A stretch of 64,000 nt of DNA, taken from a bacterium (GTDB lineage: Bacteria > Auribacterota > UBA6266). Shown one piece after another: positions 3,846 through 50,799 of this stretch (its first letter is position 1; every line of letters begins with the position of its first letter). The position numbers and the translations under genes were made by a program. Location: contig JALOBK010000001.1 in assembly GCA_023228325.1 (NCBI GenBank), positions 1,596,111 to 1,660,110 of the forward strand, read 5' to 3'. The notes beneath the pieces were generated by a model that ran no database searches, was not told where the DNA came from, and saw nothing but the letters and a program-made list of their open reading frames with translations.

Positions 3846-5507
3846 TTATCTGTGCTGTTCCACGTAATCTATTATCTTTTCTTTAGATAGTTGTGATATG
3901 TCCGTGAAGTTTATTGCGAATCCTACACTGTCATTTATTCCCGAATAGGATGTGAGAAAGCGCACTACGGGTCCTTTGATATGGACAGGATCCCGGCTGC
4001 CTGGTAAATACAGTTCTACTTCAGTCATTGAGCCGAGTAATACGGGTTCTTTTTTGTGCAATGGAATTTCTATTACAGCTCCGCTTGCGCTGATGTTCGA
4101 AATTTTGGACGATATGCGTTCGGGTATTAAATTTAAATATTTTAATTCATTCCTTATGATTTTTGTGGTTGCATTGAGATTTGTGTTGGCCCGGGGACAT
4201 TTTCTCCTGTGTCTCTTCTTATCCATCGTTTCCAGCGGAGAATGGCTGTCATCAACTGGATCTGCGGATATGGTTCCGATTTCTTTTAATATCATCTGAG
4301 CCTTGAAATTGTTGGCGTTCTGTTCAATCAGATCCTGACAGATAGCTTTTGCCTTATCTTTTTCTCCTTTTTTAACATATGATTCCGCAATGGATTCCGA
4401 ACATTTTATAATTTTCCGGTTTATATCTGGGAAGTCGGGTTTTTCATTTGAGATTGAATTAAAATAACCGAATGCTGTTTCATATTCGCCTTCGGAAAGG
4501 AAAGCCGTTCCCAGCCAATACCTTGCTTTTGTATTTTCATTGTCGACTTCAAGCGCTTTCAGGTAGAAATCTTTTGAGGCCTCAAGGTTCTGCGGTCCTT
4601 CCATTTTTCTGTAAACATCTCCAAGCCTGTTGTATAGGCTTGCGCATTTTTTATTTAATTTCAAAGCTTCCTGATAATAAAAAATCCCGTCCTTTATAAA
4701 CTCTCCTTTTTTTACAAAACAGCAGATATCACCGAGGGCGACATACGCCGGGAAATGGTAGTCCATTTTTGGGGGTTTTAGAAGATACTTGGCTTTTTCC
4801 GCCCTTATGATGGAAAGGAGTATTTTTTCTGCGATATCATACCGGTCCACCCTTATGCATACAATGCCGGCCCTGTAAAGCAGATCGGTAAATGAAGAGC
4901 CCAATTCCCTGCATATTTCGTAAACTTCGATTTTATCTTCTTCGGATACGATATAACATCTTCCTAACTCCTCGAGTATAAAACTGTCTCTCAGCCCAAA
5001 TTTTTTAAACGCTCTTTCACACCATGATTTATACTCTGCCGACCGGTATTTCTGGTAAGGAGACCATTGAGTGTCAATATGCCGTATAAGCAGCGACAAT
5101 ACCTGGGGAGTATCCTTCTCCATCTGGATAAGGCTTTTTATCATCTGGACATGTGTATCATTCAAAGAAGATATTTTTGGAATTAACTTGTCAAGAAAAG
5201 GCATATTCTCCTCTGGATTAAAGTCATAGCCGATGGCTTCCAGCAAAGAAGAAAAGGCTGATTCATAATTACATTTTGAAAGTTCTATTTTTGATCTGAA
5301 GAAAAACAGTTCGGAAATGAATTCACGCGGGATAAAGCTTTTTTCCTTTAGTGTTGAGATTAGCTTGTTGCATTCCGACTCGGCAAGGGAAAACTCGTTA
5401 TCCTGAATTAATTTTTCCAGTCCATGTAATTTTTTCTTTTCAGACCAATTTATCATAACCACTCTGATTATACCATAAATGCTATCAATACGCTTCAAAT
5501 GTGTCAA
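3846..5507 (-). CDS. TPR-repeat protein with C-terminal PilZ-like (c-di-GMP-binding) domain
   Basis: 553 aa; TPR-like repeats in centre; C-terminal ~120 aa has 'KRHRRK' (RxxxR-type) followed by 'NISASG' ((D/N)xSxxG) and a beta-rich tail, the two PilZ signature motifs. Confidence 0.6.
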   Translation of the reverse strand: MTHLKRIDSIYGIIRVVMINWSEKKKLHGLEKLIQDNEFSLAESECNKLISTLKEKSFIPREFISELFFFRSKIELSKCNYESAFSSLLEAIGYDFNPEENMPFLDKLIPKISSLNDTHVQMIKSLIQMEKDTPQVLSLLIRHIDTQWSPYQKYRSAEYKSWCERAFKKFGLRDSFILEELGRCYIVSEEDKIEVYEICRELGSSFTDLLYRAGIVCIRVDRYDIAEKILLSIIRAEKAKYLLKPPKMDYHFPAYVALGDICCFVKKGEFIKDGIFYYQEALKLNKKCASLYNRLGDVYRKMEGPQNLEASKDFYLKALEVDNENTKARYWLGTAFLSEGEYETAFGYFNSISNEKPDFPDINRKIIKCSESIAESYVKKGEKDKAKAICQDLIEQNANNFKAQMILKEIGTISADPVDDSHSPLETMDKKRHRRKCPRANTNLNATTKIIRNELKYLNLIPERISSKISNISASGAVIEIPLHKKEPVLLGSMTEVELYLPGSRDPVHIKGPVVRFLTSYSGINDSVGFAINFTDISQLSKEKIIDYVEQHR

Positions 5508-9303: not shown

Positions 9304-10029
9304 ATGGGCAGCATGAAAGTAAAATTGCTGGAATCGACAAAAGATGCGGTGAATTTAATATATTCCGCCTGCCGGCAGTGTTATTCCGCCCGTTTTGCGG
9401 CGGAGATATTCCGCGATAAGAAGATATCGAAAAAGGAAAAAGCCCTTTTTATCAGGAAAATAGTGTCTTCGGGCCATGAGAGCCCGCTTGAACATGCCAA
9501 ATTTACCTTTGCGGTCGAAGGAGTTTCCAGGGCTCTGACACACCAGCTTGTCAGGCACCGCATAGCTTCTTACTCGCAGCAGAGTCAGAGATATGTCAAA
9601 GATGAAAGTTTTAGTTACGTTACTCCTCCCGTTTTTAAGTCAGACACGCTCCTGATGAAAGAATATGAATCGTGCATGAAAATGATAAGCGGCTGTTACG
9701 GCAGATTGATTAGTATACTCGAAAGAAAGGGCATAAAGGGGGAGTCCGCCAACCAGGATGCAAGGTTTATCCTGCCCCAGGGCGCGGAGACTAAAATAGT
9801 TATTACCATGAACTGCAGGGAACTCATTCATTTTTTCAAGCAGCGTTGCTGCGCGAGGGCCCAGTGGGAAATAAGGCAGCTTGCGTGGAATATGTTGAAG
9901 ATATGCGCTAAAAAGATGCCGGAAATTTTTTCCGGGATAGGGCCGAAATGTGAAACACTGAAATATTGTCCTGAAGGCAGGGATTTTTCATGCGGGAGGT
10001 ATCCGGTTAAGCAGAATTTTGATAGATAA
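9304..10029 (+). CDS. thyX: Flavin-dependent thymidylate synthase ThyX
   Basis: ThyX signature 'RHRIASYSQQSQRY' (RHRxxxxxxS); ~240 aa; ORF-track start at 9244 is TTG; ATG at 9304 or 9313 more likely. Confidence 0.85.
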   Translation: MGSMKVKLLESTKDAVNLIYSACRQCYSARFAAEIFRDKKISKKEKALFIRKIVSSGHESPLEHAKFTFAVEGVSRALTHQLVRHRIASYSQQSQRYVKDESFSYVTPPVFKSDTLLMKEYESCMKMISGCYGRLISILERKGIKGESANQDARFILPQGAETKIVITMNCRELIHFFKQRCCARAQWEIRQLAWNMLKICAKKMPEIFSGIGPKCETLKYCPEGRDFSCGRYPVKQNFDR

Positions 10030-11287: not shown

Positions 11288-14200
11288 TTATTTAATGTCT
11301 CTGTGATATTCCTGGAGAGATTTAACTTTGAATTTTCCCTTTTCTGATTCTGCTATGCCTTTTACGGCCGCCAGAGCGGCAGGTACGGTTGTTATATACG
11401 GAATTTTATATTTTATTGCCGCTTTCCTGATATAAGAGTCGTCGTGTTTGCTGATATGGCCTATGGGAGTGTTGATTATCAGATGAATTTCCTTGTTTTT
11501 TATGGCGTCAACTATGTTAGGCCTTCCTTCATGCAATTTTTTTATTTGCTCTGTTTCTATTCCGTTATCTTGCAGATACGTGTGTGTTCCTGATGTCGCA
11601 AATATTTTAAATCCAAGTTTCTTAAACTGTCTGGCTATTTCCAATGCGCCTTTGCGCTCTTTGTCGGATAGCGTTATGAGAACAGTTCCTTCTACAGGAA
11701 GCTCGGGTTTTGCGGCTTCCTGGGCTTTAAAATATGCTAAACCGAAAGAATCTGCCATTCCGAGCACTTCACCGGTTGAACGCATTTCCGGACCGAGCAC
11801 AGGATCCACTTCCTGGAACATAGAGAAGGGAAGCACGGCTTCCTTTACGCCGAAATGAGGGATTTTCCTGTTTTTCAGGTTAAGCTCCGAAAGTTTCTTA
11901 CCGAGCATTAACTGAGTCGCGATTCTTGCCATTGAAATATTGCAAACCTTTGAAACAAGCGGGACAGTCCTTGAAGCTCTCGGATTAGCCTCCAGGACAT
12001 ATACTATATCATTTGCGATTGCGTATTGCATGTTCATCAGGCCGACTACCTTCAATTCTTTGGCTATTTTTTTCGTGTATTCACATATCGTTTTCAGGCT
12101 TTTTTCCGATATGCTGACCGGAGGAATGACACATGCCGAGTCTCCGGAATGTATTCCGGCCTGTTCGATATGTTCCATAACGGCGGGAATAAATGTATCG
12201 GCGCCGTCTGAGATCGCGTCCGCTTCGGCCTCTACGGCGTTTTCCAGGAATTTATCAATAAGTATCGGCCTTTCGGGTGTCACATCTACAGCCGCAGTGA
12301 CATATTCTTTCAGCATTTGTTCATCATGGACTATTTCCATTCCGCGTCCGCCCAGTACATATGAGGGCCTGACCATAAGAGGGTATCCGATTCGTTTGGC
12401 GACGGCAAATGCTTCTTCCATTGTGCTTGCCATTCCGGATTCGGGCATAGGAATATTAAGCTTGGCCATCATTTTTCCAAAGCGGTCGCGGTCTTCGGCG
12501 AGGTCTATGGTTTCAGGCGTTGTTCCCAGTATCTTAACACCTGCTTTTTCCAGTTCATCTGCTAAATTCAGGGGAGTTTGCCCTCCGAATTGGACAATTG
12601 CCCCAACCGGGTTTTCCTTCTTGTAAATACTCAGGACATCTTCAACCGTAAGTGGTTCGAAATATAGCTTGTCTGATGTGTCGTAATCGGTGGAAACTGT
12701 TTCCGGATTACAGTTAACCATGATAGTTTCATAGCCTTCGTCTTTTAATGTGAAAGCGGCATGAACACAGCAGTAATCGAATTCTATTCCCTGTCCGATG
12801 CGGTTTGGCCCGCCGCCGAGAACCATAACTTTTTTATTGGATGTTGTTTGAACTTTATCGGTTTTATTGTTATATGTTGAGAAGTAGTAGGCGGCGTTTT
12901 CCACACCGCTTACGGGGACAGGTTCCCATGTTTCGGTAATATTCAATGACAGGCGCTGATTTCTGATTTTTTCCTCCGGAACGGATAATATTTTTGAAAG
13001 GTACCTGTCGGCAAACCCGTCTTTTTTTGCCTTTATTAACAATTCATCGGGCAGTTCGTTGTTCCTGTATTTAAGGATTTCCCCCTCAAGCTCCACAAGT
13101 TCTTTCATCTGTCTTAAAAACCATGGTTTAATATGGGTTTTACTGAATAATTCATTGACATCAGCCCCTTTCCTCAGCGCTTCGTACATGATAAACTGAC
13201 GTTCGCTGGAAGGTTCTTTGAGAAGAGCCATTAAATCATCCAGGCTCTTTTTATTGAAATCTTTCGCGAAACCCAGACCGTACCTGTTAATTTCAAGAGA
13301 GCGTATCGATTTCTGGAAGGCTTCCTTGTAATTTTTGCCTATGCTCATAACTTCTCCGACTGCTTTCATCTGGGTTCCGAGTCTGTCCTGTGCATTTTTG
13401 AATTTTTCAAAAGCCCAGCGCGCAAACTTGACTACAACATATTCGCCGGAAGGCTTATATTTATCGAGGGTTCCTTCTTTCCAGTAGGGTATTTCATCCA
13501 GGGTCATGCCCGCCGCGAGCATTGAAGATATTAATGCGATGGGGAAGCCGGTTGCTTTGGATGCAAGAGCCGATGACCTGGAAGTTCTCGGGTTTATCTC
13601 TATTACAACAATCCGCCCTGTTTGTGGGTCGTGCGCGAATTGGATATTTGTTCCTCCTATAACCTGGATTGCCTCAACAATATCATAAGAGTATTTTTGA
13701 AGTTTCTGCTGAAGTTCCTGTGATATCGTAAGCATCGGGGCTGTGCAGTACGAATCTCCGGTATGAACGCCCATGGCATCTACGTTTTCGATAAAGCAAA
13801 CGGTTATCATCTGGTTTTTTGAATCTCTCACGACTTCAAGTTCCAGTTCTTCCCAGCCTAAGACGGATTCTTCGATGAGAACCTGTCCCACCAAACTGGC
13901 GGAAATCCCTCTGCTGGCTACGGCCTGAAGTTCTTCAAGGTTATATACAAGTCCGCCTCCGGTGCCTCCAAGAGTGTAAGCGGGCCTTACCACCACAGGA
14001 TATCCGAGTTCGGAGGCCGCTTTTTCCGCTTCCTCGACGCTGTAAACAGCCTGGCTTTTCGGCATGTCTATGCCTAATTTGTTCATCGTTTCTTTAAAAG
14101 CCGTCCTGTCTTCGCCTTTCTTTATCGCGTCTACGTTAACACCTATGACTTTTACACCGTATTTTTCTAGTATTCCCATTGACGCAAGTTCAGAGCTCAG

Positions 14201-14491
14201 GTTCAGCCCTGACTGGCCTCCGAGGTTGGGAAGCAGGGCGTCAGGACGTTCTTTCTCTATAATCTTCTCCATAGTTTTCGCGTCAAGTGGTTCTATATAT
14301 GTAGCATCAGCAAGACCGGGATCTGTCATTATCGTAGCGGGGTTGGAATTAACCAGTACAACATCATAACCGAGCTTTTTTAATGCTTTGCATGCCTGTG
14401 TCCCTGAATAATCGAATTCGCAGGCCTGTCCGATAATAATAGGGCCTGAACCGATTATCATAATTTTTTTTATGTCTTTTCGCGCCGGCAT
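11288..14491 (-). CDS. carB: Carbamoyl-phosphate synthase large subunit
   Basis: Two ATP-grasp halves; N-terminus 'IMIIGSGPIIIGQACEFDYSGTQACKALKKLGYDVVLVNSNPATIMTDP'; C-terminal MGS-like domain; start set at ATG 14491 preceded by GGGAG RBS (ORF track starts at upstream TTG 14506). Confidence 0.95.
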   Translation of the reverse strand: MPARKDIKKIMIIGSGPIIIGQACEFDYSGTQACKALKKLGYDVVLVNSNPATIMTDPGLADATYIEPLDAKTMEKIIEKERPDALLPNLGGQSGLNLSSELASMGILEKYGVKVIGVNVDAIKKGEDRTAFKETMNKLGIDMPKSQAVYSVEEAEKAASELGYPVVVRPAYTLGGTGGGLVYNLEELQAVASRGISASLVGQVLIEESVLGWEELELEVVRDSKNQMITVCFIENVDAMGVHTGDSYCTAPMLTISQELQQKLQKYSYDIVEAIQVIGGTNIQFAHDPQTGRIVVIEINPRTSRSSALASKATGFPIALISSMLAAGMTLDEIPYWKEGTLDKYKPSGEYVVVKFARWAFEKFKNAQDRLGTQMKAVGEVMSIGKNYKEAFQKSIRSLEINRYGLGFAKDFNKKSLDDLMALLKEPSSERQFIMYEALRKGADVNELFSKTHIKPWFLRQMKELVELEGEILKYRNNELPDELLIKAKKDGFADRYLSKILSVPEEKIRNQRLSLNITETWEPVPVSGVENAAYYFSTYNNKTDKVQTTSNKKVMVLGGGPNRIGQGIEFDYCCVHAAFTLKDEGYETIMVNCNPETVSTDYDTSDKLYFEPLTVEDVLSIYKKENPVGAIVQFGGQTPLNLADELEKAGVKILGTTPETIDLAEDRDRFGKMMAKLNIPMPESGMASTMEEAFAVAKRIGYPLMVRPSYVLGGRGMEIVHDEQMLKEYVTAAVDVTPERPILIDKFLENAVEAEADAISDGADTFIPAVMEHIEQAGIHSGDSACVIPPVSISEKSLKTICEYTKKIAKELKVVGLMNMQYAIANDIVYVLEANPRASRTVPLVSKVCNISMARIATQLMLGKKLSELNLKNRKIPHFGVKEAVLPFSMFQEVDPVLGPEMRSTGEVLGMADSFGLAYFKAQEAAKPELPVEGTVLITLSDKERKGALEIARQFKKLGFKIFATSGTHTYLQDNGIETEQIKKLHEGRPNIVDAIKNKEIHLIINTPIGHISKHDDSYIRKAAIKYKIPYITTVPAALAAVKGIAESEKGKFKVKSLQEYHRDIK

Positions 14492-14631: not shown

Positions 14632-15291
14632 TTATCTCTTTCTGCGTGTTATCGAAATTACTCCAACAAGTCCCAACCCTAAAAGGACTATGCTTGTCGG
14701 TTCAGGCACAACATCAAAAGAGGCGTCGTCAACCCATATATCATTTGGATCCCCTGCCCCTGTTTTGCTGAATACGATTTCATATTTTGCGCCTACGGTA
14801 TCTGTCGGAGCTGTGAATACGTCTGAAAGAGAATGCCATAAGCCGGCTGTGTAAGTGTTATTGAAGAGTGAAGCCCCTTCATCTGTTTTTATTACCCCGC
14901 CGCCGGCATTAAGCCATTCAATTTTAAACAAGGCTCCACCCGGGGTAATATCCGACTGCCTGTTGAAAAATGCCGAAGCCGCGTATTGTGTCCCGGGATT
15001 AATCCCGCTTTCTATCGTTTGCGCAATCATTGAATATGCCCAGTTGCTGCCATACAGGAAAAGTGTGGCAGAGTGGGGAGCGCTTTTGGAATTGCTGTCT
15101 GTAACCCATGAGCCGCCGCCTGATGCAGTGCCGCCGCCGCCACCGCCCCACCAGGGGGTTGTATCCCATTTAATTTCCTGTACGGCCATTGAATCAAAGC
15201 CCGAGTCGGCTAACAAATTAGCTGAAGCGGGAGTGTTTGCGGTCAATACCAGAAGTAATACCGCAACCAGGCTTAAATACGTGTGTTTCAT
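14632..15291 (-). CDS. PEP-CTERM sorting-domain protein (exosortase substrate)
   Basis: Signal peptide; mature N-terminus 'ASANLLADSGFDS'; Gly-rich tract 'PWWGGGGGGTASGGGSW'; C-terminus 'VPEPTSIVLLGLGLVGVISITRRKR' = PEP motif + TM helix + basic tail. Confidence 0.8.
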   Translation of the reverse strand: MKHTYLSLVAVLLLVLTANTPASANLLADSGFDSMAVQEIKWDTTPWWGGGGGGTASGGGSWVTDSNSKSAPHSATLFLYGSNWAYSMIAQTIESGINPGTQYAASAFFNRQSDITPGGALFKIEWLNAGGGVIKTDEGASLFNNTYTAGLWHSLSDVFTAPTDTVGAKYEIVFSKTGAGDPNDIWVDDASFDVVPEPTSIVLLGLGLVGVISITRRKR

Positions 15292-15316
15292 CGAAACACC
15301 TCCTTTATTTTGTCTA

Positions 15317-15330
15317 AGGAAAACGTTTTC
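15317..15330. promoter_or_regulatory. Candidate LacI-family operator: 14-bp perfect CG-centred palindrome
   Basis: 'ggaaaacgttttcc' in the divergent region between PEP-CTERM gene 14632..15291 (-) and the EPS operon; ~25 nt upstream of the minus-strand ATG. Confidence 0.4.
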
Positions 15331-15497
15331 CTGAAGATTAAAAAAAAATAATACGCTGTTTTAATGTATTTAGGGCAATCGTTTTCCTTAAGGCTGTGCT
15401 GTAATATACATTACATGTTCAAATTTGTCAAGGGATGGATATATTATAGTAAAAGGGATGATCATAAAAAGTTTTTTTACAAAAAAACTGTTTTCTG

Positions 15498-15506
15498 TGC
15501 TATAAT
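15498..15506 (+). promoter_or_regulatory. Extended -10 promoter element upstream of the EPS export operon
   Basis: 'tgctataat' (TGnTATAAT) about 110 nt upstream of the secretin start. Confidence 0.35.
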
Positions 15507-15616
15507 AATCGACTATAATTAAGTGATATGTATTCCATTATATGAAAATAGATTAGAGTAAATGTAAGCAAAAAATACATAGAGAAAATGTTTTTATGAA
15601 AAATGAAAGGTTTCTG

Positions 15617-17305
15617 ATGAAAAGAACTATATCAGTTTTAATATTGATAACGTTAACTATCGGGTGTCTGCTCTCCACAGATATTTTTTCGGAAGAGAAC
15701 CTGATAAACCTGGATGTCGTCAATCAGGATATTCAGACTGTGCTTAAGATGCTGGCGCAGCAGCAGAATTATAACATAGTCATCAGCAGGAATGTTACGG
15801 GGGTGATTACTGTTAAACTTGAAAACGTTACGATTGAACAGGCGCTTGATTCTATCCTTAAACTTAACAACTATAATTATAGTATTGAAGACGGAATAAT
15901 CAATGTCATGTCATATCAGGACCTGCAGCATGAAGAAAGATTCGCGAAAAAACAGACCAAAGTATTTACCCTTCAAAATGCGGATGTGATGGATTTAAAA
16001 AGAGTTATTCTCTCGATGAAAAGCGCGAGAGGTAAAATCGAATTAAATCCGAAAAACAACCAGATAATTATTAACGACACTCCCGATAAAGTCGCTGAAA
16101 TCGGAGAGGCGATAATCGCGTTAGACCAGCCTGTTGAAGTAAGAAGATATAATATCCTTTATGCTGACGTTGACGATATCCAGACAAAGTTGCTGCAGGT
16201 GATTCCAAAAGAAAAAGGTGAGATCTTTATAGATGAGAAAAACAACGCTATTGTTATCAAAGCCACGCCTGTTGTCTTAAAACATGTGGATGAATTAGTC
16301 AGAGGCTGGGATTTTCAGCCTAAGCAGGTGCTTATCGAATCGCAAATGGTTAAAATCCAGCTGGATGACAATATGGCTTTGGGTATGGATTGGGAGATAA
16401 AAACCGGCGGCAAGGAGGGTAATAAGTTTGTTGACCTTGCCACTAAATTAACAGTTGCGGCTACTACCGGCGGAGCCGGGGGGATATTTACATTGGGTTC
16501 GCTAACCGCCGGGGAATATACCGCTACGATTGAGGCTTTAAAAACAACCAAGTTCGCCGATGTCCTTTCAGCTCCGAGAGTGGTTGTGCTGGATGGGGAA
16601 GAAGCTAAAATTCTTGTAGGAAGCAGTGAGCCTTACAAGGTTGCTGTAACCGATCCTGTGACAAAACTGCTTGTTGAAGAGATAAAATATGTTGATGTGG
16701 GTATAAAACTGGAAGTTACCCCCAGAATAGGGGAAGACGATTATATAACAATGAAAATCCATCCGGAAGTCAGCAAAGGTCAGAGAGTATTAAACGATTC
16801 TGCGGTACAGGTGATTCTTACGGAAGCTGATACGACTATGATGGTTAAAGACGGTGAAACCGCTATACTTGGAGGACTGATCGACTCCGAATCCTCGACA
16901 GAAATCGACAAAGTCCCGTTGTTAGGGGATATACCCCTGTTAGGGCTCCTGTTCAGGAAAAATGTTGAAACTGAAAAGAAAAGCGAACTGATTATCTTTA
17001 TTACCCCCCATATCCTGAATGATAATAAGAGAACTAAGATTTCGAAGCAGAGCTGGGATAATTTTAATGAAAGAGGTGAGGAATTCGATAAAAAGGTTGA
17101 ATTCGAGCGCCTGATGAAAATAAAAATGGGAAAATCTCCTTATGAGGAAGAAGACCTGATTCCTGACGCAAAGAGCAGAATTTTACTCGAGCAGTATAAC
17201 GAAACTGATTTTTCCGAGCCGGGCACAGAGAGCGGCAAAGTGGAAAATAATTCAATAAAAGCAGATGCTGATTTGTCCTTGGAGCCTGAGCCGTCTGGAG
17301 AGTAA
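15617..17305 (+). CDS. Secretin-family outer-membrane channel protein
   Basis: N-terminal signal peptide; secretin N-domains; C-terminal secretin signature 'VPLLGDIPLLGLLFRKNVETEKKSELIIFITPHIL'; first gene of the EPS operon (ORF-track ATG at 15596 is an alternative start). Confidence 0.8.
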   Translation: MKRTISVLILITLTIGCLLSTDIFSEENLINLDVVNQDIQTVLKMLAQQQNYNIVISRNVTGVITVKLENVTIEQALDSILKLNNYNYSIEDGIINVMSYQDLQHEERFAKKQTKVFTLQNADVMDLKRVILSMKSARGKIELNPKNNQIIINDTPDKVAEIGEAIIALDQPVEVRRYNILYADVDDIQTKLLQVIPKEKGEIFIDEKNNAIVIKATPVVLKHVDELVRGWDFQPKQVLIESQMVKIQLDDNMALGMDWEIKTGGKEGNKFVDLATKLTVAATTGGAGGIFTLGSLTAGEYTATIEALKTTKFADVLSAPRVVVLDGEEAKILVGSSEPYKVAVTDPVTKLLVEEIKYVDVGIKLEVTPRIGEDDYITMKIHPEVSKGQRVLNDSAVQVILTEADTTMMVKDGETAILGGLIDSESSTEIDKVPLLGDIPLLGLLFRKNVETEKKSELIIFITPHILNDNKRTKISKQSWDNFNERGEEFDKKVEFERLMKIKMGKSPYEEEDLIPDAKSRILLEQYNETDFSEPGTESGKVENNSIKADADLSLEPEPSGE

Positions 17306-33577: not shown

Positions 33578-33940
33578 ATGATTAAAACTCAAAATTCAAA
33601 ACAATATGACTTGGAAGAAAGAACATTGGAATTTGCAAGAGAAGTTAGAAATTTTGTTAGGGAATTGCCGCAGACTTTAGCTAATATGGAAGATGGAAAG
33701 CAGTTGATAAGATCTTCAGGTTCTGTAGGGGCAAACTACATTGAATCTAATGAATCTTTAAGTAAAAAAGATTTTGCAATGAGAATAAAAATATCCCGTA
33801 AAGAAGCAAAGGAAAGTTGTTATTGGTTAAAGCTTATTAGAGCTAATACTGACAATTTAGAAAAGGAGAGAAAAAGATTAGTTCAGGAAGCACTGGAACT
33901 TACCAAAATATTTGGTTCAATAGTAGAGAAAACAAAATAA
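33578..33940 (+). CDS. Four-helix-bundle protein (family historically annotated as '23S rRNA intervening-sequence protein')
   Basis: 120 aa; 'LEFAREVRNFVRELPQTLANMEDGKQLIRSSGSVGANYIESNESLSKKDFAMRIKISRKEAKESCYWLKL' matches the family pattern. Confidence 0.8.
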   Translation: MIKTQNSKQYDLEERTLEFAREVRNFVRELPQTLANMEDGKQLIRSSGSVGANYIESNESLSKKDFAMRIKISRKEAKESCYWLKLIRANTDNLEKERKRLVQEALELTKIFGSIVEKTK

Positions 33941-34900: not shown

Positions 34901-35716
34901 GTGAAAAAATTTCCAATATTTTTATGTGTAATAGGTCTTTTATTTTGTATAATTTATTGGCCCACATTTGTCTGGATGAAAGCAAGGTTTGTTGCTACAG
35001 GCACGTATTATTCTCACGGATTCCTTGTTCCATTTGTTGTAATTTTTCTCGTGTGGAGGAAAAAAAATATATTCAAGGAATCATATGAGTCTAATAAAGT
35101 GGGAATTGTAATAATTTTGGGAAGCCTTCTTATTCATCTTCTTTCATATACATGGAAGATTTTTTTTATATCAGGATTTTCAATGATTTTTACTTTGATA
35201 GGTCTCATACTTTACGTATTTGGAAATAGAATTTTAAAAGAACTTTGGTTTCCCTTATGTTTTTTGGTTTTTATGATACCTTTACCTATATTGGTTATTG
35301 ATAACATAAGTTTTAAGTTAAAGATATTCGTTGCGCAGATAGCTACTTGTATAATAAATATATTAGGAATTCATGCGGAAAGAGAAGGCAGTGAGGTAAT
35401 ACTACAGAATACATCGCTTATGATAGGAAGTCCGTGCAGCGGCTTAAGAAGCCTGATTTCTCTCACAGCGCTTGGTTCTTTGTATGCTTATATTGTTGAC
35501 CTGTCTAATACGAGAAAAATAATCTTATTTGTTTCTTCTATTCCTCTTGCACTTTTATCGAATATAATACGTGTGGTTTTATTGCTTTGGGTTGCCAGGG
35601 GATGGGGTTCCGAAACGGCGACCGGCTGGTTTCATGATTTTTCCGGGTTTCTTGTTTTTATTTTTGCGTTTTTAGGATTAAAGATTGTGGAAAATATGCT
35701 TTCATGGAAAAGTTAG
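34901..35716 (+). CDS. Exosortase (EpsH/Xrt family transpeptidase)
   Basis: 271 aa polytopic membrane protein; conserved Cys 'GSPCSGLRS', Arg 'NIIRVV', N-terminal 'YWPTFVWM'; co-localised with EpsI and PEP-CTERM genes; GTG start. Confidence 0.85.
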   Translation: MKKFPIFLCVIGLLFCIIYWPTFVWMKARFVATGTYYSHGFLVPFVVIFLVWRKKNIFKESYESNKVGIVIILGSLLIHLLSYTWKIFFISGFSMIFTLIGLILYVFGNRILKELWFPLCFLVFMIPLPILVIDNISFKLKIFVAQIATCIINILGIHAEREGSEVILQNTSLMIGSPCSGLRSLISLTALGSLYAYIVDLSNTRKIILFVSSIPLALLSNIIRVVLLLWVARGWGSETATGWFHDFSGFLVFIFAFLGLKIVENMLSWKS

Positions 35717-37064: not shown

Positions 37065-37306
37065 TGTAATATAGTTCACCTCCTATGAAATTGGGCTGAA
37101 GCGCATAACGTGCTTTGGCCCAATTTGTTATGAGATAAAAATCATTCCGGTGTCGCAAATTCATACATCAAAGCATACCAGATACATACGAGATACAACG
37201 ACACGTGACGATATATACAATATATTATTTCAAAATAATTTGTCGTCTACAAAACAACAATTACACTTGACATAATAGTTATAATATGGTAAAAAGATAC
37301 TTAAAT

Positions 37307-37326
37307 AAATCGAAACGTTTCGATTT
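37307..37326 (+). promoter_or_regulatory. Candidate LacI-family operator: 20-bp perfect CG-centred palindrome
   Basis: 'aaatcgaaacgtttcgattt' in the leader of PEP-CTERM gene 37350, ~23 nt upstream of ATG, just before the RBS. Confidence 0.4.
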
Positions 37327-37349
37327 AGTAGAATAAAGGGGGTGAACGG

Positions 37350-37961
37350 ATGAAACAAATAGCAATTATAATTGCTGTGCTTGCTTTTTCATTGAGTTCT
37401 TATGCAAGCGCGAACCTGCTTGTTAACGGTGATTTTGAGCTTACCGGTGAAGATGGTCATCTGACGGGCTGGACAATTGACTACAATCAGAATATCGCAG
37501 AAGCTCAGGATAATCCTGAATCAGGCGCCTGGCACGCAAGAAACTATAACGATGGGGGTATGTATCAGGATGTTTCAATTACCGGTGGAATGACTTATGA
37601 TATTACTGGATATGCTTATATTCCTTCCGGGACAGGCGGCAGCCCTTGGGGAACATATATAGGGGTCAAGTTTTTGAGAGCTAATGGAACCACAGCAACG
37701 GGTGGTAGTTTTCAAGTTGATATGCAGGGTTTACCAAGGGATGTATACAATTTAGCTGATACTGGTTGGGTTGTAGCTCCTTCTGATGCAGTAACCGCGA
37801 GAGTAAGGTTTGGAACATGGTCGAATGCTCCGTATGAACCTGTTGCTCCGACAGATTTTGATAATTTCTCTTTAGTGGCGGTTCCTGAACCGACTAGTTT
37901 AATGTTGTTAGGATTAGGCTTATTCGGAATCATAGGTTTCGCGGCAAAGAAGAAGAAATAA
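37350..37961 (+). CDS. PEP-CTERM sorting-domain protein with CBM-like N-terminal module
   Basis: Signal peptide then 'ASANLLVNGDFELTGEDGHLTGW'; C-terminus 'VPEPTSLMLLGLGLFGIIGFAAKKKK'. Confidence 0.85.
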   Translation: MKQIAIIIAVLAFSLSSYASANLLVNGDFELTGEDGHLTGWTIDYNQNIAEAQDNPESGAWHARNYNDGGMYQDVSITGGMTYDITGYAYIPSGTGGSPWGTYIGVKFLRANGTTATGGSFQVDMQGLPRDVYNLADTGWVVAPSDAVTARVRFGTWSNAPYEPVAPTDFDNFSLVAVPEPTSLMLLGLGLFGIIGFAAKKKK

Positions 37962-38174: not shown

Positions 38175-39212
38175 ATGGATATAAAAAAGAAAAACATTAC
38201 GATAAAAGATATAGCCGCAGAAGCTGGAGTCGCTCATTCTACGGTATCCCTGGTAATGAATAATAAGGGGTATGTGAGCGAGGAGCTTCGGACGCGCATC
38301 CTTAAATCCGCAAAGAAACTGGGCTATGAGCCCAATCTTATCGCCCGCGGTCTGATAAGCAGGAAATTTCCTGTTCTTGCCGCTGTTTTCCCTGAAGATC
38401 CGCATTTTTTCGCGGTAGCGTACTTTCTTGGTATTTTGGCCGGTATCCAGGATATATGCCGTAAGAATGAAAAAGCCCTGATGTTGTTCAATACTGATCA
38501 GGCGCAGAAGGATTCTTACTATCAGATTACCCGCAAATGGCTTAGCAGCCTTATGATTATTGTTAATATCGATTACACGAAGAATATTGAGAATAATCTC
38601 CGCACACTGGCAAAAAACGACATTCCGTTTGTTCTTATAAATAAGTATCTGGGGGAAGAAGATGTGAATTATGTCTGCGTGGACAATTATGACGGAGTCT
38701 ACCAGGCCATCGAACATCTTGTGGATCTGGGGCATAAGGAAATCGGCATGATAAAGGGGAATATGAATACCCCGGACGGCCTTGAGAGGTTTGAAGTTTT
38801 TAAGGAAGTTTTGGAAAGGTTTCATTTGAAATATAACCCCGAATGGGTTTTTGACGGGGATTTTACCGTAGAAAGCGGTGAAAAAGCGGGAGATGAGTTT
38901 TTAAAGCTTAAGCAGCGCCCTTCAGCGGTTTTTGCGTCCAACGATGATATGGCAATCGGCATAATGAAAAAATTGCAGTCCCGGGGCTTATCTGTTCCCA
39001 GAGATGTTTCGCTTATTGGGTTTGATGACAATTTGCAGGCCGGTTTTCTGATTCCGGGATTGACTACGATTAAGCAACCGTTATTTGAAATGGGGCAGGA
39101 AGCGGCAAAATTAGTAGTGAACTATAATGAAGAAGAAAATCACAAGACTCATCATATTATCTTGAAGCCTAAACTGGTTATACGCGAATCCACAGCTTCT
39201 TATTCTAAGTAG
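38175..39212 (+). CDS. LacI-family transcriptional regulator
   Basis: N-terminal HTH 'ITIKDIAAEAGVAHSTVSLVMNNKGYVSEELRTRILKSAKKLGYEPNLIARGL'; periplasmic-binding-protein-like effector domain; 345 aa. Confidence 0.9.
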   Translation: MDIKKKNITIKDIAAEAGVAHSTVSLVMNNKGYVSEELRTRILKSAKKLGYEPNLIARGLISRKFPVLAAVFPEDPHFFAVAYFLGILAGIQDICRKNEKALMLFNTDQAQKDSYYQITRKWLSSLMIIVNIDYTKNIENNLRTLAKNDIPFVLINKYLGEEDVNYVCVDNYDGVYQAIEHLVDLGHKEIGMIKGNMNTPDGLERFEVFKEVLERFHLKYNPEWVFDGDFTVESGEKAGDEFLKLKQRPSAVFASNDDMAIGIMKKLQSRGLSVPRDVSLIGFDDNLQAGFLIPGLTTIKQPLFEMGQEAAKLVVNYNEEENHKTHHIILKPKLVIRESTASYSK

Positions 39213-39368
39213 GTCTTTTTCCCATCTCTCATTTAAAATTGTCTACATCGGTATGCCTTTTTAATATTATTATGTACCTATACATCGTAACGTATATATA
39301 TCAACACGTATTGATTAATTATTAAAAACGTTATACTAAATCTTACCGTCGGTAATAAAAAAATATTC

Positions 39369-39397: not shown

Positions 39398-39411
39398 TTT
39401 GAATTAATAAC

Positions 39412-39425
39412 TCGAAACGTGACGA
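39412..39425 (+). promoter_or_regulatory. Candidate operator half-conserved with 37307 site
   Basis: 'tcgaaacgtgacga' shares the 9-mer 'tcgaaacgt' with the 37307 palindrome; same position relative to promoter and ATG of gene 39457. Confidence 0.3.
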
Positions 39426-39456
39426 GCAAACAATAACCAAACAAGGGGGTGAATGG

Positions 39457-40137: not shown

Positions 40138-40809
40138 CTACCTTCTTCTTTTGGAAATCAGTAAAAGTCCGGCAATACCCGCTCCGAAAAGAGCTATTGT
40201 GCCTGGTTCGGGAACGACACTTGTGGCGCCTATATTGTCTAATCCCCAGCTCACGCTTCCGCCTGCGGGAGCGGAAATAATAAAGTTAGCTGACGCGAAA
40301 TCGCCTGTCCAGATATTATTTCCGATGCCGGAATTGTCATCCACGAAGGCTGAAAATGGGATTATGACTTCCTGCCATCCTGTCCAGTTTATCGGCAGCC
40401 AAATACTTTCATCTTCAGTCCATTCCCCGTATTTGAACATATCTCCATCTTTTTCCTTTAACTCTATCTTCAGGCTTCCCCAGGATGAATCACCTTTCAC
40501 CAGCAGTCGCAGGGAATCATAAGCGCCGAGATCCATCTCTTTGTAATGTCCGGCTCCGCCGGTATAGTAGTTATAGTTATTGTCAGCGGCTTGAATATCA
40601 AGATAGTTGCTGCCCTGAGGGGCTCCGCTTGAAGATAGGGTTGGTGTAAATATGTCTCCGGTATCCGAATATTTCCACCAGTAGTTGGGAGCGCTGCTAT
40701 TTACCCAGTCGATTCCGCTTTCAAAGTCATCAAAGATGACATCGGCAGTTGCCGCTTGTGCTGCAACAGCGAATATCACAGCAAAGCATGTGAAAAACAG
40801 TTTCTGCAT
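40138..40809 (-). CDS. PEP-CTERM sorting-domain protein
   Basis: Signal peptide 'MQKLFFTCFAVIFAVAAQAATA'; C-terminus 'VPEPGTIALFGAGIAGLLLISKRRR'. Confidence 0.85.
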   Translation of the reverse strand: MQKLFFTCFAVIFAVAAQAATADVIFDDFESGIDWVNSSAPNYWWKYSDTGDIFTPTLSSSGAPQGSNYLDIQAADNNYNYYTGGAGHYKEMDLGAYDSLRLLVKGDSSWGSLKIELKEKDGDMFKYGEWTEDESIWLPINWTGWQEVIIPFSAFVDDNSGIGNNIWTGDFASANFIISAPAGGSVSWGLDNIGATSVVPEPGTIALFGAGIAGLLLISKRRR

Positions 40810-40962: not shown

Positions 40963-41033
40963 GAATGTAACCGATTACATTAAGTGTTTTGCCAGCTTTG
41001 TTTTTTATGTCTTAAATATGTAACCGTTTACAT
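40963..41033. promoter_or_regulatory. Two cre-like CG-centred palindromes (TGTAACCG[A/T]TTACA)
   Basis: 'aatgtaaccgattacatt' and 'atgtaaccgtttacat' ~54 bp apart, upstream of PEP-CTERM gene 41060; both fit the TGWAANCGNTNWCA pattern. Confidence 0.35.
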
Positions 41034-41059: not shown

Positions 41060-41692
41060 ATGAGGAAAGTTTTATTTTCGGTTCTCGTAGGTGTTCTGTT
41101 TGTCCTTCCTGCATCAGCCCAGGCTAATATGCTTGATAACCCCGGGTTTGAATCGTGGGTCGATTATCAGGGAACAAATGTACCTGATAATTGGTGGCAT
41201 ATGTTTGGGGATGCTGATGTGGCAGGAACACAGAGCAGCAATGCAAAGTCGGGTTCTTCATCCGGGCAAATAACTATTACAGGTTCAGGATGGGGAGGCT
41301 GGGGCCAGTGGGTAAGCGAGACTGTGACAGCTGGACAAACTTTTTATGCTTACCAGCCTATTAATATTCCCACGGCGCTGGTAAATGCCGAAGCTGTTCT
41401 GGAGTTAAAATTCCAGGATAACGGCGGCGGAACAGTGGGAAGCGCGCTTCTTACTAACAGAACTACGGCAACAAACGGATGGGAAGCGCTTTCTTTAAGC
41501 GGAATAGCTCCTACAGGGGCAACAAAGCTTTCTTACACGGTTTTGGTGAGGGATACTGCGTCGAGTCCGAACGGGACGGTTTATTTTGACGATGCCTATG
41601 CAGATACACAGCCAGTTCCTGAGCCGGCAAGCTTATTGCTTCTCGGGTTGGGCCTTGCGGGTATTTTGGTATTTAAGAGAAACAGGGCGTAA
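41060..41692 (+). CDS. PEP-CTERM sorting-domain protein with CBM-like N-terminal module
   Basis: Signal peptide then 'AQANMLDNPGFESW'; C-terminus 'VPEPASLLLLGLGLAGILVFKRNRA'; GGGGGA RBS. Confidence 0.85.
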   Translation: MRKVLFSVLVGVLFVLPASAQANMLDNPGFESWVDYQGTNVPDNWWHMFGDADVAGTQSSNAKSGSSSGQITITGSGWGGWGQWVSETVTAGQTFYAYQPINIPTALVNAEAVLELKFQDNGGGTVGSALLTNRTTATNGWEALSLSGIAPTGATKLSYTVLVRDTASSPNGTVYFDDAYADTQPVPEPASLLLLGLGLAGILVFKRNRA

Positions 41693-50054: not shown

Positions 50055-50187
50055 TTAGACCATAAATAGTATACACAGATATATTCAATATCGTTCTTAA
50101 ATAATCGATTGTTTTAAACTTGTATAGTAAATTTACAATAACAGAGTATACTCGGGTATATTTACATACAAATTAAGGGAGGTAAAA

Positions 50188-50799
50188 ATGAAGAGAGTTG
50201 TTTTGCTTTCAATAAGCATCTTTTGTTTATTGCTTTCTTCCCAAACCGTAGTTGAAGCGGCAACAGGTGTATATTACGGTTTTGAAAGCGATACGGAGGG
50301 TTGGGCAGCAGAACCATGGGGTTACGGAGTACCTGCTTTGGTATGGAATGCAGATCAGAATCTTCGGCTGGACACCGGTACTGTGGATGTGGATGCAAGT
50401 GACTGGGCTAAAATTCATATCAGGAGAGACCAGGATGAAGCATTGGATCTGGCCGGCAATGCGGCATATTCGATGAATATATTCATTCCTTCCAACGCGT
50501 ATTATGTAAAAGCGAAATTAACTGTAAGGTCCGGTAATAACTGGGATTTCTGGGCAGGACAGGAGTTTGAACTTGAAAATAATAATACATGGCAGACAAT
50601 AAACTGGGACCTGAGCGGAGCGTCAAACCTGAGCGATATCAGGCAGATAGGTCTTGAAGTTCAGGGGTTTTTAGGCGAAGACCCTTCTTTCTATATAGAT
50701 GATGTAACAGCGGGAACAGTTCCTGAACCGTCCAGCATAGCGTTGCTTGCGGGAGGAATCCTGGGGCTGTTTTTTGTTGCGAGAAAAAATAAAGTTTAA
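50188..50799 (+). CDS. PEP-CTERM sorting-domain protein
   Basis: Signal peptide; C-terminus 'VPEPSSIALLAGGILGLFFVARKNKV'; GGGAGG RBS; paralog of 36438..37064. Confidence 0.85.
   Translation: MKRVVLLSISIFCLLLSSQTVVEAATGVYYGFESDTEGWAAEPWGYGVPALVWNADQNLRLDTGTVDVDASDWAKIHIRRDQDEALDLAGNAAYSMNIFIPSNAYYVKAKLTVRSGNNWDFWAGQEFELENNNTWQTINWDLSGASNLSDIRQIGLEVQGFLGEDPSFYIDDVTAGTVPEPSSIALLAGGILGLFFVARKNKV

Follow-up and report, generated by a model that had tools for sequence, protein, structure and literature searches.

A conserved pair of LacI-type operator-like sites in the leader of a PEP-CTERM gene of an uncultured bacterium

PEP-CTERM proteins are abundant in environmental bacteria, and to our knowledge little is known of their function or of how their genes are controlled. 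The only control of such genes that we found described is that by PrsK/PrsR with sigma-54, or RpoN (Haft 2006, PMC1569441; PMC9850573). Among the papers retrieved by full-text search with both "PEP-CTERM" and "LacI", and judged from titles and abstracts, none had a title on LacI control of PEP-CTERM genes. LacI-family motifs are typically even palindromes of 16-22 nt, a central CG pair is found for 1173 of 1303 LacI-family transcription factors, and more than 75% of the sites lie 30-140 bp upstream (Ravcheev 2014, PMC4052901).

Here we analyzed a 304-bp spacer (15292-15595) that separates a PEP-CTERM gene from an exopolysaccharide (EPS) operon. It lies in a 64-kb stretch of DNA from an uncultured member of the Auribacterota, and this whole stretch is called the window below. 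The locus resembles the PrsK/PrsR/RpoN systems in that a PEP-CTERM gene beside an exosortase/EPS locus appears to have dedicated transcriptional control. It differs in that its promoter hexamers are of the sigma-70 type, and its sites look like those of a repressor and not like an enhancer for an activator. No sigma-54 GG-N10-GC (-24/-12) element was present on either strand of 15292-15595, and control here is therefore unlike that by PrsK/PrsR/RpoN. We consider it probable that the sites, which follow the pattern GGAAAACG(W)TT(K)CC, are an operator pair for a dimeric LacI-family repressor that would control the PEP-CTERM gene 14632-15291 and not the EPS operon.

A palindrome pair conserved in a drifting spacer

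A search of the window placed the palindrome GGAAAACGTTTTCC at 15318-15331, and with its flanks included it extends to AGGAAAACGTTTTCCT at 15317-15332, a perfect palindrome of 16 bp centred on CG. It ends 26 nt 5' of the minus-strand ATG at 15291, with its centre 33 nt upstream of that ATG, which confirms the preliminary description of a perfect palindrome about 25 nt before the minus-strand start. That description also noted a second half-site about 60 bp further on. The site is there, but it is a full copy and not a half: GGCAATCGTTTTCC at 15374-15387 is identical to GGAAAACGTTTTCC at 12 of 14 positions, and its centre lies 89 nt upstream of the ATG, 56 bp from the centre of the first copy. 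These two are the only matches to GGAAAACGTTTTCC with two or fewer mismatches in the 64-kb window. The gene calls around the spacer held as well, with the PEP-CTERM gene 14632-15291 on the minus strand and the secretin-led EPS operon on the plus strand. Sites of this class are called A-type below, and the features are collected in Table 1.

Table 1. Coordinates of the features discussed in the text
Feature	Position	Strand	Description
PEP-CTERM gene (proposed regulated gene), 219 aa	14632..15291	-	Signal peptide, CBM/lectin-like beta-sandwich, PEP-CTERM sorting tail; PEP-CTERM matches
Ribosome-binding site AAGGAGG	15299..15305	-	7/7 columns invariant
RBS-proximal operator-like site, A-type	15317..15332	.	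AGGAAAACGTTTTCCT; 13/14 core columns invariant in four Auribacterota genomes; counterpart in L033
A9/T9 tract between the two sites	15340..15348	.	Run of 7-9 in all four Auribacterota genomes, surroundings variable
TSS-proximal operator-like site	15370..15391	.	TTAGGGCAATCGTTTTCCTTAA; core 15374-15387; 12/14 core columns invariant
Predicted sigma-70-type promoter	15403..15431	-	TTGACA 15431..15426, 17-nt spacer, TATATT 15408..15403; 11/12 consensus match
Likely -10 elements, secretin/EPS operon	15498..15519	+	TGcTATAAT 15498-15506, second TATAAT 15514-15519; without A-type site
Exosortase	34901-35716		
37307 palindrome, B-type	37306..37327	.	TAAATCGAAACGTTTCGATTTA, 22 bp perfect; invariant in L001, L003; top matrix match
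LacI-family regulator, 345 aa	38175..39212	+	Pfam LacI and Peripla_BP_3; HTH AHSTVSL; hinge PNLIARGL

The spacer is 27% GC, and palindromes are therefore cheap in it. A perfect even palindrome of at least 14 bp appeared in 6.7% of 20,000 dinucleotide shuffles of the spacer, a frequency that favors reading the sites as chance palindromes of AT-rich DNA without function. The paired pattern was much rarer, because a palindrome accompanied by a second copy with two or fewer mismatches appeared in only 43 of the 20,000 shuffles (0.2%). The same pair is also found in five genomes, including one from another phylum. With these results, we regard chance as an extremely improbable explanation.

Homologous spacers were found in L015 (secretin 99% identical at the amino acid level), L028 (secretin 97%), L018 (secretin 88%) and L031 (PEP-CTERM protein 90%). 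The L015 spacer is identical to that of the window, and a metagenome scan with the secretin found one close relative only, identical in the spacer. For the LacI-like protein and the secretin, near-identical or close relatives occur in the uncultured "Candidatus Auribacterota/Aureabacteria" MAGs UBA6266, STD1_172 and Zod_Metabat.1009. We aligned the spacers of four Auribacterota genomes, read in the direction of the PEP-CTERM gene. Conserved islands stood out at the -35 hexamer TTGACA and the -10 hexamer TATATT (both invariant in the four genomes), at both sites, at the T-run between the sites and at the ribosome-binding site, whereas the promoter spacer and most of the DNA separating the sites have drifted. 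Our comparisons rest on few genomes, four close Auribacterota genomes and one Omnitrophota MAG. In the four, 25 of 28 columns were invariant in the sites versus 36 of 87 in the rest of the stretch from the -35 hexamer to the ribosome-binding site (Fisher p = 7e-6).

The substitutions within the sites either remain inside the consensus or shift toward it. The TSS-proximal site reads GGAAAACGATTGCC in the window and L028, and GGAAAACGTTTACC, nearer to the palindrome, in L018 and L031; the GGTAAACGTTTTCC carried by these two is nearer to the consensus. At the RBS-proximal site, L028 has a symmetric change from A:T to G:C at +/-8, and L018 has one change in the central flank. The A9/T9 tract between the sites may contribute to DNA bending. 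In the Omnitrophota MAG (L033), the interval that matches this tract holds a GC-stem hairpin followed by GTTTTTA instead.

L033 encodes an ortholog of the PEP-CTERM protein with 53% amino acid identity. Upstream of it we found TTGACA-17-TATTCT followed by GGAAAACGATTTCC and GGAAAACGATTGCC, 59 bp apart (with fuller ends, TAAGGAAAACGATTTCCT and then TTAAGGAAAACGATTGCCCTT), which is the same layout of promoter and sites as in the window. Two A-type matches occurred in the 16.7 kb of L033 against 0.10 expected, and none of 200 shuffles reached two. The 20-mer at 15372-15391 of the window is identical to L033 7950-7969, which could reflect gene transfer instead of long-term constraint. Across 501 kb of compared sequence, every match with two or fewer mismatches but one, which is intragenic, lies upstream of an ortholog of 14632-15291. 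Taken together, 20 half-sites from five genomes gave the 22-bp consensus TTARGGAAAAC-GTTTTCCYTAA, with GG at NT-7/-6, AA at NT-4/-3 and C at NT-1 invariant in all 20.

A further L033 sequence, GGTTTAACGTTAACC at 9929-9943 (centre 9936), is also CG-centred with GG at NT-7/-6. Because it falls within the codons for the signal peptide of a CBM30-like gene, we set it aside as an additional operator; it may be either an intragenic operator or a chance match. This CBM30-like gene heads a string of glycoside hydrolase, CBM and LacI genes downstream of the orthologous PEP-CTERM gene.

From the predicted promoter, we infer that transcription of 14632-15291 starts near 15396 and gives a leader of about 105 nt, with the TSS-proximal site at about +10..+23 and the RBS-proximal site at about +66..+79. 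No intrinsic terminator or attenuator was found on the minus strand of this leader. The palindromes might instead act in the mRNA, where hairpins or pairing between the two copies would alter mRNA stability or access to the ribosome-binding site. Both copies lie inside the predicted 5' leader, and in the minimum free energy fold the two copies pair with each other, 5' half to 3' half. In addition, the symmetric change in L028 is what would be expected of a hairpin stem, and the change in L018 falls in the would-be loop. The folding results, however, speak against an RNA element. The leader fold had a z of -0.76, and 35 of 200 shuffles reached an equally good or better fold; the local hairpins are weak (-4.7 kcal/mol); the TSS-proximal copy does not fold (-0.8 and -0.4 kcal/mol in the window and L018); and the better-paired copy switches between the window and L033. 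Across the leader and eight single sites, folds were either no better than those of shuffles or absent. A hairpin would also leave the invariant central CG and half-site letters unexplained. Rfam gave no match at the gathering score over the whole window and, at E<=1 over 15200-15700, only a match to a plant miRNA (17 bits, E = 0.36), and a tRNA scan of the window found none. We therefore consider action at the RNA level very unlikely.

The preliminary description called the motif operator-like, and this term is justified, because the sites are kept amid drifting surroundings, resemble LacI-family operators in shape and lie just downstream of a conserved promoter. From sequence comparison, we conclude that the element in 15292-15595 is very probably functional. 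We read it as a conserved pair of probable LacI-type operators within the PEP-CTERM gene leader.

The gene served by the sites

The sites lie between two transcription units. An AlphaFold model of the 14632-15291 product (pLDDT 71) is a beta-sandwich that matches the CBM16, CBM22 and Fbs1 sugar-binding folds. Its paralogs and orthologs give either weak CBM_4_9 matches or firm Mann_GBD matches, and the orthologs in other phyla share 44-61% identity with it. On the plus strand, the EPS operon consists of a secretin-like gene, an XrtA-type chain-length determinant, a Tyr autokinase, a flippase, Wzy, glycosyltransferases and sugar-nucleotide enzymes that include GDP-mannose dehydratase and epimerase. 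Two other genes in this part of the window are worth recording. A gene for a 120-aa protein of the "23S rRNA-intervening sequence protein" family (33578-33940; PF05635, E = 4e-13) sits between the glycosyltransferase block and the TPR/exosortase genes, and a homolog interrupts a glycoside hydrolase string in L026. About 10 kb upstream of the EPS operon, 3846-5507(-) encodes a TPR protein that carries a PilZ domain at its C terminus and may be a receptor for c-di-GMP.

The preliminary description proposed that the motif couples PEP-CTERM expression to expression of the EPS operon. This proposal was not supported. Both A-type sites lie in the minus-strand leader, 110-190 bp upstream of the EPS -10 elements, which form a block that is nearly invariant in the four genomes. 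A third A-type site near the EPS promoter would be a candidate for looping, and none with three or fewer mismatches was found in 15388-15700. Gene content points the same way. In L020 and L022 (secretin 65-67% amino acid identity), no PEP-CTERM gene lies between carB and the secretin gene, the EPS operon is intact, and the 224-bp spacer between carB and secretin (4777-5000) has no A-type sites. L033 shows the reverse, with the orthologous gene and its two sites present and no secretin/EPS operon adjoining. Because the sites are absent where only the EPS operon occurs and present where only the gene occurs, they most likely belong to the PEP-CTERM gene 14632-15291 and would control it, not the neighboring EPS operon. 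On this reading, the earlier idea of a link through this element between PEP-CTERM expression and the EPS export operon needs correcting.

We also observed that carB directly adjoins the secretin operon in L020 and L022. The PEP-CTERM gene and its control region thus behave as a module that can be inserted or deleted, judging by these two genomes.

LacI-family form of the sites and candidate regulators

The form of the sites agrees with what is described for LacI-family operators in three respects. The 16-bp perfect palindrome at 15317-15332 and the 22-bp consensus are even palindromes within the 16-22 nt range. The C at NT-1, and with it the central CG pair, is present in 20 of 20 half-sites from five genomes. 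The centres lie 33 and 89 nt upstream of the ATG, downstream of TTGACA-17-TATATT. In addition, LacI genes accompany orthologs and paralogs of 14632-15291 in three phyla. In L032 (Verrucomicrobiota, ortholog 58% amino acid identity), a LacI gene lies 0.1 kb directly downstream of the ortholog, and in L033 one, at 13375-14409, lies 4.7 kb downstream of it in a string of glycoside hydrolase and CBM genes. Symmetry and conservation prove only a symmetric, sequence-specific reader, and no cognate LacI gene was found in the window, both of which leave room for a dimeric transcription factor of another family that binds the sites and controls the PEP-CTERM gene likewise. We consider such a factor rather unlikely, because LacI-family factors have as their signature an even palindrome in which AA/TT flank an invariant central CG (PMC4052901), because LacI genes sit beside orthologs and paralogs in three phyla, and because the recognition code fits the L033 regulator.

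In this code, NT-6 covaries with residue AA-20 of the recognition helix, where Arg pairs with G, and NT-5/-4 covary with AA-15/16 (Camas 2010, PMC2978694). The pair (V,A) at AA-15/16 corresponds to TA, and (I,T) to AA, although the latter rule rests on only 4 binding sites (Camas 2010 Table S1, PMC2978694). The helix of the L033 LacI protein, SITTVSR, gives the predicted triplet G-A-A, which equals that of GGAAAAC, by an (I,T) rule drawn from those 4 sites. As a control, we applied the code to the L032 LacI protein, whose helix SVATVSR predicts G-T-A; the site adjoining its own gene is TGTAACC (TGTAACCGGTTACG). The invariant G at NT-6 of the A-type sites thus points to an Arg-20 (TVSR-class) LacI paralog. 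Most likely, the gene for the cognate regulator lies outside the window and encodes such a paralog, a relative of the L033 regulator.

The window itself encodes a single LacI-family protein, 38175-39212, which was the only tblastn match. Its gene lies 23 kb from the A-type sites and is flanked by two PEP-CTERM paralogs of 14632-15291 (37350-37961 and 39457). This protein could bind both the sites at 15.3 kb and the 37307 palindrome and thereby co-regulate the PEP-CTERM genes and the divergent EPS operon, and several observations favor such an arrangement. There is no second LacI gene within the window, the genes in question are paralogs with the same layout of promoter followed by operator, A-type and B-type sites share AAACGTTT with its central CG, and CTAAAAACGTTTTTAG, near a LacI ortholog with 60% identity, shares the 10-bp core AAAACGTTTT. 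The shared core was also the point of the preliminary description, which matched it to the 37307 palindrome. The match is real, although the 8-mer AAACGTTT occurs four times in the window against 2.4 expected, so that the shared core alone proves nothing, and the 37307 palindrome is longer than was stated.

We built a half-site matrix from sites at LacI orthologs (57-60% identity) together with two sites beside the window LacI gene. The orthologs in L024, L025 and L027 (57-60%) adjoin GH2_C/GH5-like genes and CBM or PEP-CTERM genes, and at about +5..+20 after the promoters of these genes we found sites such as TCAAAACGTTTCGA and ATAAAAACGTTTCGAT. At the ortholog locus in L026, no AANCGNTT site was found in the spacers. 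The four best matrix matches in the window, with scores of 14.5-23.7, were 37316, 39418, 39307 and, in fourth place, 37204. All four adjoin the window LacI gene and make up two pairs, one (112 bp apart) around the promoter of 37350 and the other (111 bp) around that of 39457. The 37307 palindrome itself (37306-37327) lies just after the promoter of the PEP-CTERM gene 37350-37961, with its partner at 37197-37212, 112 bp upstream. In contrast, the A-type site at 15324 ranked 94th (score 4.2) and that at 15380 ranked 2810th (-6.1) among 63,984 positions.

The two classes also differ in their letters. B-type half-sites follow T-C-R-A-M-A-C-G (TCGAAAC-G) and have T-C or T-A at NT-7/-6, whereas all 20 A-type half-sites have GG there. 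The window LacI protein and its orthologs have Leu at AA-20 (AHSTVSL), and the residue linked to G at NT-6 is Arg. Given these poor matrix scores and the difference at NT-6 and NT-7, we set aside the earlier suggestion that the same regulator serves both loci. Together with the distance of the sites from the EPS -10 elements, and their absence with the EPS operon only and presence without it, these results make control by the window LacI protein unlikely. That protein most likely serves the B-type operator class, including the 37307 palindrome, and the A-type sites would answer to an Arg-20 paralog.

The B-type pairs have a layout of their own. AACGACACGTGACGAT at 37197-37212 is paired with ATCGAAACGTTTCGAT at 37309-37324 (112 bp apart), and ATCAACACGTATTGAT at 39300-39315 with CTCGAAACGTGACGAG at 39411-39426 (111 bp apart). 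Both pairs straddle a TTGACA promoter, a layout that resembles gal OE/OI looping, and all four sites are conserved in L001-L003. [quoted passage not shown] Elsewhere, the LacI orthologs end strings of GH2_C/GH5-like genes, and small PilZ-like genes follow them in L025, L026 and L027.

Other PEP-CTERM genes in the window are preceded by CG-centred sites of different sequence. A third type (C-type, TGTAAnC) comprises TGTAACCGATTACA at 40966-40979 and TGTAACCGTTTACA at 41019-41032, 53 bp apart. Both follow the TTGACA-16-TAGAAT promoter of the PEP-CTERM gene 41060-41692, in a divergent spacer whose other side is the PEP-CTERM gene 40138-40809(-). These sites fit the GalR/CcpA-like pattern TGTAAnCGnTTACA, are conserved in L002 and L003, and by the recognition code would need a further LacI paralog of the (V/I/T,A)-TVSR class. 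Similarly, the near-palindromes AATAATCGATTGTT at 50100-50113 and TATACTCGGGTATA at 50147-50160 follow a TTGACA-17-TATAGT promoter in the leader of the PEP-CTERM/Mann_GBD gene 50188-50799. Of the 18 best CG-centred palindromes in the window, 7 precede PEP-CTERM genes.

Proposed mechanism and comparison with known systems

We propose the following model for the A-type pair. RNA polymerase would start from the predicted strong sigma-70-type promoter of the minus strand (TTGACA-17-TATATT). Two repressor dimers would bind, the first at about +10..+23 and the other at about +66..+79, and jointly they would prevent clearance of the promoter, or elongation, until released by a sugar effector. The gene product is predicted to be an exosortase-sorted surface protein with a fold like that of a carbohydrate-binding module, and for such a product sugar-dependent control would make biological sense.

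The conserved LacI-type operators, the CBM-like folds and the neighboring glycoside hydrolases in several uncultured phyla suggest a sugar switch for PEP-CTERM proteins and a part for them in capturing glycans. A broader hypothesis, which we put forward tentatively, is that paralogous exosortase-sorted CBM/lectin-like proteins of Auribacterota, Omnitrophota and Verrucomicrobiota are each wired through leader operators to a different sugar-sensing LacI repressor. If so, the sets in the window would be those with A-type GGAAAAC, B-type TCGAAAC and C-type TGTAAnC sites. PEP-CTERM proteins would then be substrate-inducible glycan-capture devices of loci resembling polysaccharide-utilization loci, and not constitutive partners of the cell's own exopolysaccharide. 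The sugar-switch hypothesis is concrete, and in the case of organisms that resist cultivation it can be tested in a heterologous host.

Among well-studied repressors, lac O1 is centred at +11, lac O1 and O3 lie about 92 bp apart, and gal OE and OI lie about 113 bp apart and flank the promoter. The A-type pair is like lac O1 and gal OE-OI of E. coli in that one operator lies just downstream of the start and the second lies in the transcribed region, positions that point to repression by blocking initiation, clearance or elongation. It differs from lac and gal in that its operators are 55-59 bp apart and both downstream of the promoter. This spacing does not correspond to full helical turns, and cooperative looping is therefore not obvious. 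The window LacI protein (345 aa) shows no sign of a LacI-type C-terminal tetramerisation helix.

Operators of the RbsR/PurR type read CGAAAC-GTTTCG and GCAAAC-GTTTGC, and both PurR and RbsR have TVSH, with no Arg at AA-20. The PurR and RbsR motifs are compared in Fig. 8 of PMC4052901. The B-type sites come close to these. The 37307 palindrome and its relatives (TCGAAAC-GTTTCGA) have the same CGAAACGTTTCG core and, similarly, a regulator without Arg at AA-20, although the window LacI protein has Leu at that position. The A-type sites differ from the RbsR/PurR type in having GG, and not CG or GC, at NT-6/-7, which places them in another specificity class. We conclude that the element is of a well-known kind, and that its modest novelty lies in target and lineage. 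Compared with LacI/GalR-family operators of the RegPrecise type (PMC4052901), the half-site TTARGGAAAAC matched no named regulator, the host belongs to an uncultured candidate phylum, and the predicted target is a PEP-CTERM surface protein and not a catabolic enzyme or transporter.
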